DNA of 64,000 bases from Escherichia coli (GTDB taxonomy: Bacteria; Pseudomonadota; Gammaproteobacteria; Enterobacterales; Enterobacteriaceae), in assembly GCF_024223415.1 (NCBI RefSeq), contig NZ_CP100500.1; one strand, 5' to 3'. Positions 52,446-55,400 of this stretch are shown here, piece after piece (position 1 is the stretch's first letter; every line of letters begins with the position of its first letter). The position numbers were made by a program.

Positions 52446-55400
52446 TTAACATCCGTTGTTATTTTGCACGGTTTTTGTCGGGTATGGATTTGATAATTGC
52501 TGCGCAAATGCACGTTTTCAGGGCAATAATTGCCTGATTTTTGGGCAAGATAATTAACGTTTTCGTATAGTAACAGAGTGAAAGTATTTTAAATCAACGA
52601 ATTAGATTTGTGCTTTAATCGCAAATTGCGATCTAAATCAAATTAATCGGTTAAAGATAACCGCAGCGGGGCCGACATAAACTCTGACAAGAAGTTAACA
52701 ACCATATAACCTGCACAGGACGCGAACATGTCTTCTCATCCGTATGTCACCCAGCAAAATACCCCGCTGGCGGACGATACCACTCTGATGTCCACTACCG
52801 ATCTGCAAAGCTATATCACTCATGCTAATGACACTTTTGTGCAGGTGAGCGGCTATACCTTGCAAGAGTTACAGGGGCAGCCGCACAACATGGTGCGTCA
52901 CCCGGATATGCCAAAAGCGGCGTTTGCGGATATGTGGTTCACCCTGAAAAAAGGGGAGCCCTGGAGCGGCATCGTGAAAAATCGCCGCAAAAATGGTGAC
53001 CATTATTGGGTGCGGGCCAATGCGGTACCGATGGTGCGCGAGGGAAAAATCAGTGGCTATATGTCGATTCGTACCCAGGCGACGGATGAAGAGATCGCGG
53101 CGGTGGAGCCGCTGTACAAAGCGTTGAACGCCGGACGTACCAGTAAGCGTATTCATAAAGGCCTGGTGGTGCGTAAAGGCTGGCTGGGTAAACTGCCTTC
53201 ATTACCGCTTCGCTGGCGGGCGCGTGGAGTGATGACCCTGATGTTTATCTTGCTGGCGGCCATGCTTTGGTTTGTTGCTGCCCCGGTGGTGACGTATATC
53301 CTCTGTGCGTTAGTGGTATTGTTGGCAAGCGCCTGTTTTGAATGGCAGATTGTCCGCCCGATAGAAAATGTCGCCCGTCAGGCACTGAAGGTGGCGACCG
53401 GAGAGCGTAATAGTGTTGAGCATCTGAATCGCAGCGATGAGCTGGGGCTGACATTACGCGCGGTAGGGCAGCTTGGCCTGATGTGCCGTTGGCTAATTAA
53501 CGATGTCTCAAGCCAGGTGTCCAGTGTCAGAAATGGCAGTGAGACGCTGGCGAAAGGCACCGATGAACTGAACGAACATACCCAGCAGACAGTTGATAAC
53601 GTTCAGCAAACGGTGGCGACCATGAACCAAATGGCGGTGTCGGTGAAACAGAACTCTGCCACAGCGTCGGCTGCCGATAAACTGTCAATCACCGCCAGTA
53701 ATGCGGCAGTGCAGGGCGGGGAGGCGATGACCACGGTGATCAAGACAATGGACGATATCGCCGACAGTACCCAGCGCATTGGCACCATTACTTCGCTGAT
53801 TAACGATATTGCGTTTCAGACCAATATTCTGGCCCTGAATGCGGCGGTGGAAGCGGCGCGAGCCGGCGAACAGGGCAAAGGTTTTGCAGTGGTGGCGGGG
53901 GAAGTGCGTCATTTAGCCAGCCGCAGCGCCAATGCTGCCAACGATATTCGCAAGCTGATTGATGCCAGTGCTGATAAGGTGCAATCCGGTTCGCAGCAGG
54001 TACACGCCGCCGGACGTACGATGGAAGATATTGTGGCACAGGTGAAAAACGTCACCCAGTTGATTGCCCAGATTAGCCATTCAACGCTGGAACAGGCCGA
54101 TGGGCTTTCCAGCCTGACCCGTGCAGTGGATGAGCTTAACCTGATCACCCAGAAAAATGCCGAGCTGGTGGAAGAGAGTGCGCAGGTGTCGGCGATGGTG
54201 AAACACCGCGCCAGCCGACTGGAAGACGCGGTGACGGTGCTGCATTAATCGGTATGCCGGATCCGGTATTTGATACACGATGCCTGATGCGATGCTGGCG
54301 CATCTTATCAGGCCTACGGGGTGTGTAGCGGGTGTAGGCCGGATAAGGCGCGTCAAGCGTCGCATCCGGCAATTGTACCGCGCCACTGGCGGATGCGGCG
54401 ATTAATCCAGTTGCGTAATATCAAAAGCGGCGCGGTCGATCACCGCAATGATCTTTTTTATTTGTGCATCAGTGATATCGCTCTGGTTGACGCGTAAATC
54501 CAGCACCGCTTTAAAATTATCCAGCGCCCGCTTCATTTGCGGGTTCTGGCGCAGCGCAGCGCCAACGCAACGCGCTTTGATGCGTTCTTCAATCATCTCC
54601 ACCTGTTCGCGGTTTTCTTCCAGCCACTGCGCGCCTTGTTCGGTCAGCGCAATCTGCTTCTTACCACCTTCCTCTTCGCGGATGGTAATCAGCGACTGCT
54701 CCTGCAGAAAATCCAGCGTCGGGTAGATGACGCCCGGGCTTGGGGTGTAATTCCCCTGGGTTAGATTCTCAATCGCTTTAATCAATTCGTAACCGTGGCT
54801 GTCATCGCGCGAGAGAATATCCAGAATCACCAGACGCAATTCACCGTGACCAAAGAAACGTTGCCGACGACCGCCGCCGCGACCGTGGCGACCACCGCAA
54901 CATTGACCGTGTTCATGCTGGTGACCGTGTCCGCAGTGCTCGTGTTCTGACTTCTCACCTTTGCAGCAGCCCTCATGGCGTGGCTGGCCTTCATGTTTAC
55001 AACACCCTTCGTGATGATGGCTCATATCAGCCTCCTTTTGCTTAATTAGATATATCTAATTTATATCTGATATGAGCACTCTTGCAAGAATAAAAATGAT
55101 TTTTAAATGTGGACTCATCTCACACGTAGGCCGGATAAGGCGTTCACGCCGCATCCGGCGTTGAGTAATGATGCCTGAGAAGAGGCGGTTCGTCTTATCA
55201 GACTATAGACATATCAGTGCTACAAATCGCTTGCATTTATCATGATTAACAATCATTATCATTTACGAAAATTATTTAGATATATCTGATTACCATCACG
55301 AAGGCGATAACAATGAATAACTCCCCCCGCTACCCGCAGCGCGTTCGCAATGATCTGCGCTTCCGTGAACTGACTGTGTTACGCGTTGAGCACATCAGCG

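Follow-up and report, generated by a model that had tools for sequence, protein, structure and literature searches.

The window analysed here is a stretch of 64,000 nucleotides of Escherichia coli (RefSeq assembly GCF_024223415.1, contig NZ_CP100500.1), and the region under study is the one that precedes aer. The open reading frame at 52728–54248 on the + strand encodes a protein of 506 aa, the aerotaxis/energy-taxis receptor (annotated in RefSeq as 'aerotaxis sensor receptor Aer'), which displays PAS_3, HAMP and MCPsignal domains in Pfam. The gene is flanked upstream by the divergently oriented patA/ygjG and downstream by nfeR and nfeF. A Shine-Dalgarno motif, AGGA, is found at 52717–52720 (+), 7 nt before the ATG, and the 5' untranslated region, as read from the sequence, spans the 44 nt of 52684–52727 (+).

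The initial annotation had placed a σ28 (FliA)-type promoter within 52640–52690, and both of its elements are indeed found there on the + strand. The −35 octamer, TAAAGATA, lies at 52652–52659 (positions −32 to −25), and the −10 octamer, GCCGACAT, at 52671–52678 (positions −13 to −6); the latter has CGA at −11 to −9, and its end is 49 nt away from the aer ATG. The spacer between them (ACCGCAGCGGG, 52660–52670, +) was initially given as 10 nt and is in fact 11 nt long, which is the same spacing as in the σ28 consensus, TAAAGTTT-n11-GCCGATAA (Hollands et al., PMC2859248). As for the strength of the match, the TAAAG and GCCGA cores of the two octamers are both exact, so that the description of a close match to the FliA consensus holds for the cores; it was, however, generous for the whole elements, since each octamer agrees with its consensus at six of eight positions and the −10 element carries a non-consensus C at −8, a base present in none of 51 other FliA sites, 48 of which have T at this position. 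A promoter for aer was reportedly predicted earlier, by Park et al. in 2001.

From about 52617, upstream of the CRP site, to the ATG of aer, the window and K-12 MG1655 have the same sequence, and the differences between the two are located in the patA–aer intergenic region, at or before 52606. The CRP site, the octamers, the spacer, the start and the 5' untranslated region are thus the same, with no difference in any functional element, and the experiments done in K-12 apply base for base. For K-12 aer, the same sequence, TAAAGATA-n11-GCCGACAT, was given by Hollands, Lee, Lloyd and Busby (2010, Mol Microbiol 75:1098, PMC2859248), and primer extension yielded a single product that places +1 at 6 bp downstream of the −10 octamer, a position compatible with the elements initially proposed. 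Transferred to the window, this corresponds to 52684 (+), where the base is C. Considering this base, and that the paper gives the size of the extension product as 'approximately 148 nt' (PMC2859248), the exact start could be off by 1–2 nt. Mutation of CGA to GCT in the −10 element lowered aer activity from 223 to 12 Miller units, which is the level measured in ΔfliA (12), and single substitutions in the −35 element at −32, −30 and −28 reduced the same 223 units to 23–50 (PMC2859248). In vitro, a transcript and an open complex were obtained at aer with Eσ28 only, and the KMnO4 reactivity with this polymerase spans −10 to +4 (PMC2859248). In vivo, a FliA ChIP-seq peak at aer (fold above threshold 21) was assigned to the motif TAAAGATAACCGCAGCGGGGCCGACATA (Fitzgerald et al. 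2014, PMC4183435), a 28-mer identical to window positions 52652–52679, and aer RNA fell significantly from 225 in the wild type to 12 in ΔfliA by RNA-seq (PMC4183435). All these functional data come from K-12, in part from plasmid-borne lacZ fusions. The start site, the dependence on FliA and CRP, and the occupancy of the promoter have been established in the literature on the identical sequence, and the same behaviour would be expected in the present strain. The assignment of aer to the flagellar/chemotaxis class 3 regulon through σ28, as initially put forward, is borne out by the K-12 mutants, the ΔfliA strain, transcription in vitro with Eσ28 and FliA ChIP-seq.

E. coli strains vary in flhDC expression. 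The promoter might accordingly be intact in this strain and yet be used differently, for instance because the flagellar cascade or the CRP input differs from that of K-12. The cis elements argue against such a difference: from the CRP site to the ATG they are identical to those of K-12, and they are nearly invariant across 5415 E. coli genomes. Of 5426 complete E. coli genomes, 5421 contain a 361-bp query taken around the site, and the segment 52620–52690 shows 100% identity in 3532 of 5415; the three variant genomes that were examined all carry a C→T change at 52648 (−36), which falls between the CRP site and the −35 octamer, outside both octamers. The octamers themselves do not vary in the E. 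coli genomes sampled. We regard a strain-specific use of the promoter as very improbable.

A second element of the promoter, absent from the initial annotation, is a CRP site. The 22-mer AATTGCGATCTAAATCAAATTA at 52624–52645 (+), with half-sites TGCGA at 52627–52631 and TCAAA at 52638–52642, agrees with the CRP consensus in 17 of its 22 bases. Its centre lies exactly at −49.5 relative to 52684, a coincidence with the published position which confirms the transfer of the start site. The CRP core pattern as such is in no excess over chance in the window (25 occurrences found against 25.5 expected). In K-12, one CRP site at −49.5 is required for aer activation, and this effect is direct and separate from the indirect one exerted via flhDC (PMC2859248): the activity drops to 53 Miller units in Δcrp, compared to 223 with CRP (PMC2859248). 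Shifts of the CRP site by 5, 8 or 12 bp did away with σ28-dependent activation: none was left with the site at −41.5, −44.5 or −54.5, and with the site at −61.5, an artificial construct, only a cryptic activity independent of σ28 and dependent on CRP remained (PMC2859248). The authors of that study proposed that Eσ28 is recruited through activating region 1 of CRP and the C-terminal domain of α, in a geometry that differs from those of class I and class II σ70 promoters and that aer has in common with trg only (PMC2859248). The initial reading of the locus as a σ28 promoter is thus upheld with respect to σ28 dependence, but the promoter is not driven by σ28 alone, as CRP at −49.5 is also needed.

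A natural disruption of this arrangement was encountered in E. coli 20Ec-P-124 (NZ_AP017610.1), where an IS30-like insertion sequence, ISApl1, interrupts the region a few bp before the aer −35 octamer, with a junction equivalent to about 52648–52650 of the window. The insertion, noted at positions 949–1923 of the retrieved locus, displaces the CRP site by ~1.06 kb, while TAAAGATA-n11-GCCGACAT remains intact. As the element parts the CRP site from the −35 octamer, aer of 20Ec-P-124 should lack direct CRP activation, unless the insertion sequence brings an outward promoter.

The CRP dependence bears on a different proposal, namely that a σ70 promoter, possibly activated by CRP or FlhDC, is the main driver of aer, the σ28-like motif being secondary. 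The cryptic activity described above would be of this kind, an older report named aer as an FlhDC target, and one σ70-like site is found at 52542–52571. However, that activity was seen only in the artificial construct with CRP at −61.5; the effect of FlhDC on aer is regarded as indirect, through FliA (Fitzgerald et al., PMC4183435); and the site at 52542–52571 is the only σ70-like one in 52300–52760, where 1.5 would be expected by chance, and more than 110 nt separate it from the mapped start, which is further downstream. In the same interval, no σ70 hexamer pair (TTGACA-17±1-TATAAT) was found 5–9 nt upstream of that start. Moreover, Eσ70 gave neither a transcript nor an open complex at aer in vitro, and in ΔfliA the activity is at the basal level (PMC2859248). 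The probability that σ70 is the main driver is, in our estimation, close to nil.

The conservation of the promoter was followed beyond E. coli in a scan of one genome per species. The loci, at least 120, were retrieved with a degenerate DNA pattern for the Aer PAS peptide NMVRHPDMP, that is, by a coding-sequence pattern, in order to avoid a bias toward the promoter; those listed belong mostly to distant Proteobacteria and do not include Salmonella, Citrobacter or Shigella. As a control for the upstream regions we used the antisense strand of the same region, which provides a local background, a coding-window control being open to a bias from AT-rich intergenic DNA. Among the 109 listed Aer-type loci with enough upstream sequence, σ28 sites of at least 10 bits occurred 23 times in the sense orientation and twice in antisense (Wilcoxon p = 5e-4). 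A GCCGA-type core is located 229–280 nt before the PAS motif in 13 of the 14 listed Enterobacterales loci, the distance in E. coli being 235 nt; the exception is Pantoea Mb-10, in which the best site is 337 nt away and has the core ATCAA. Strong sites of the σ28 type are also found upstream at similar distances in Yersinia (24.1 bits) and Erwinia persicina (19.7 bits). The Yersinia site comes from the matrix scan, since the upstream region of this genus was not reliably aligned and MAFFT misplaced its promoter; in Erwinia the alignment has no recognisable CRP site, though the σ28 site is present.

At closer range, E. coli, Trabulsiella, Enterobacter and Pluralibacter can be aligned without a gap over the CRP half-sites, TAAAG and GCCGA, whose spacing is fixed, while the 11-nt spacer keeps its length in the four genera and its sequence is unrelated among them. 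This alignment across four genera of Enterobacteriaceae is a standard phylogenetic footprint. The consensus T at −8 is missing from all four: in E. coli and Trabulsiella its place is taken by C, whereas Enterobacter and Pluralibacter have A.

Two other structures of the region were noted. A 16-bp inverted repeat, CGGTTAAAGATAACCG, at 52648–52663 encloses the −35 octamer of aer and appears terminator-like on the − strand by scan. We dismissed the hairpin as probably coincidental, because the C→T variant at 52648 weakens the repeat and the repeat is not conserved in other genera. In the patA–aer intergenic region, a hairpin followed by a T-run (GGGCAATAATTGCCT GATTTTTGGG) is found at 52521–52545 (+), identical in K-12; no + strand gene is located upstream of it.

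How far the motif alone would support the promoter was assessed with position-weight matrices trained on the motifs that Fitzgerald et al. 2014 (PMC4183435) list for FliA ChIP-seq in their Table 2. The aer site was left out of the training, and the matrices were run over both strands of the window and over 100 dinucleotide-preserving shuffles. With the matrix from all 51 other sites (training median 17.1 bits), the aer site scores 11.6 bits and ranks 13 in the window, with a chance expectation of 4.3 per 64 kb; with the matrix from the 24 high-scoring sites (training median 20.2 bits), it scores 13.3 bits and ranks 3, with 1.5 expected. The low values are due to the C at −8. By matrix score alone, the aer site is not distinguishable from the 64-kb background. 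A matrix scan had been suggested initially as a check of the promoter, but with 1.5–4.3 equally good sites expected by chance it offers no validation by itself, and the same is true of a scan with the CRP consensus. For the exact core pattern TAAAG-N14-GCCGA, two occurrences were counted in the window where 0.12 would be expected; with one mismatch allowed, there were six where 4.0 would be expected. The significance of the aer site comes from its position, its conservation and the published experiments, and the motif score contributes none. A further alternative is that the two octamers match by chance and have no function as a promoter, aer being transcribed from elsewhere. It can point to this score and to the second exact core, antisense in ygjI and not a reported FliA site, but it deserves virtually no credence. 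For K-12 the idea is already refuted, as mutagenesis, footprinting, transcription in vitro and ChIP occupancy are all available for the exact sequence; in addition, the spacer diverges between genera, whereas the position and the cores are retained.

The sole other exact core in the window, TAAAGATCCAGGTGGTAACGCCGAGGAA at 44952–44979 (+), is the one inside ygjI; its −10 tail, GCCGAGGA, is poor, and the site is absent from the 52 published FliA sites. The top matrix hits are at 5260–5287 (+), with 15.8–17.3 bits, and at 46896–46869 (−), with 15.2–16.5 bits; both score above aer, lie in sense orientation inside tdcB and ebgA, respectively, and are not in the K-12 FliA ChIP-seq list. In turn, AAAGCGACCAATTAACAGCGCCGATAAA at 22675–22702 (+), antisense inside yqjA, is identical to the weak intragenic ChIP-seq site '(yqjA)' of Fitzgerald et al. 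2014 (fold above threshold 2; PMC4183435), so that a second published FliA site is present in the window.

Comparison with other promoters of the regulon places aer beside trg, the other CRP-activated σ28 promoter. Both depend on σ28, in both the CRP site stands at the same distance from the two σ28 elements, and the two genes encode homologous chemoreceptors. Both are also matches of middling to low score, trg reaching 14.7 bits and aer 14.5, against 19.5–27.4 for tar, flgM, motA, fliD, flxA, yhjH, tsr and flgK. Their deviations differ: trg departs from the consensus chiefly in the −35 element (TAAGTAAT) and keeps the T at −8, whereas aer has a good −35 core and C at −8. With the canonical class 3 promoters, such as tar, motA, flgM and tsr, aer has in common the TAAAGTTT-n11-GCCGATAA organisation, the dependence on FliA and the occupancy by FliA in ChIP-seq. 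The canonical promoters are generally nearer to the consensus, although fliC, a canonical member, scores only 13.1 bits, and their ChIP-seq signals are stronger (fold above threshold 43–110 compared to 21 for aer). Unlike aer, they receive no direct input from CRP: there is no CRP site at fliC/fliD, flgMN, flgKL, motAB or tar, and the one at tsr is too far upstream to have an effect.

We consider it practically certain that 52624–52684 constitutes the single promoter of aer, used by σ28 polymerase on TAAAGATA and GCCGACAT, with a start at about 52684 and assistance from CRP-cAMP at −49.5. According to this model, σ28 (FliA) RNA polymerase would recognise the first octamer at −35 and the second at −10, 11 nt apart, and the resulting mRNA would carry a leader of 44 nt. 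As the −10 element deviates from the consensus at the almost invariant T of −8, the aer promoter is likely to be intrinsically weak, and CRP-cAMP bound at the unusual −49.5 position would compensate by recruiting Eσ28 via activating region 1 and the α C-terminal domain. The need for both σ28 and CRP implies that aer would be expressed only when free FliA is available, with class 3 timing, and cAMP-CRP is active. In this way, FliA links the production of the aerotaxis receptor to the flagellar cascade, and CRP links it to the carbon status.

The C at −8 may be the reason for the CRP dependence of aer. The apparent joint conservation of the −8 deviation and the CRP site in Enterobacteriaceae suggests that the promoter may have been kept weak in order to stay dependent on its activator, and this joint conservation is the only mildly new point of the analysis, the σ28/CRP promoter of aer being already known in full mechanistic detail. 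The stronger proposal, that the non-T base at −8 is a selectively kept weakening of the −10 element which causes the CRP dependence and co-evolves with the −49.5 CRP site in this family, is tentative, and we would put it at somewhat worse than even chances. If it were true, a single C→T change at 52676 would free aer from its dependence on CRP.

From a practical point of view, the site has little significance beyond a correct annotation. Its confirmation indicates that σ28 promoters are recognisable by eye from sequence. At the same time, a working σ28 promoter falls here in the chance range of a matrix scan, and motif score alone therefore cannot validate calls of this type.

Away from aer, a segment of ~1.9 kb between fadH and ygjK (~38577–40522) is absent from E. 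coli O157:H7 strain TR01. The aer region matches TR01 at 100%, but BLAST gave only 98–99% identity, with indels, over the remainder of the window, which is therefore assigned to E. coli without a strain of this kind. It contains an open reading frame at 38730–40274 (−) for a protein of 514 aa, annotated as 'hypothetical protein', for which no Pfam family was found and which shows three internal repeats (LINxxTD...VNELxVAMTNxL...FSGHTITFT). Of the 5426 complete E. coli genomes, only 251 contain the segment in full.
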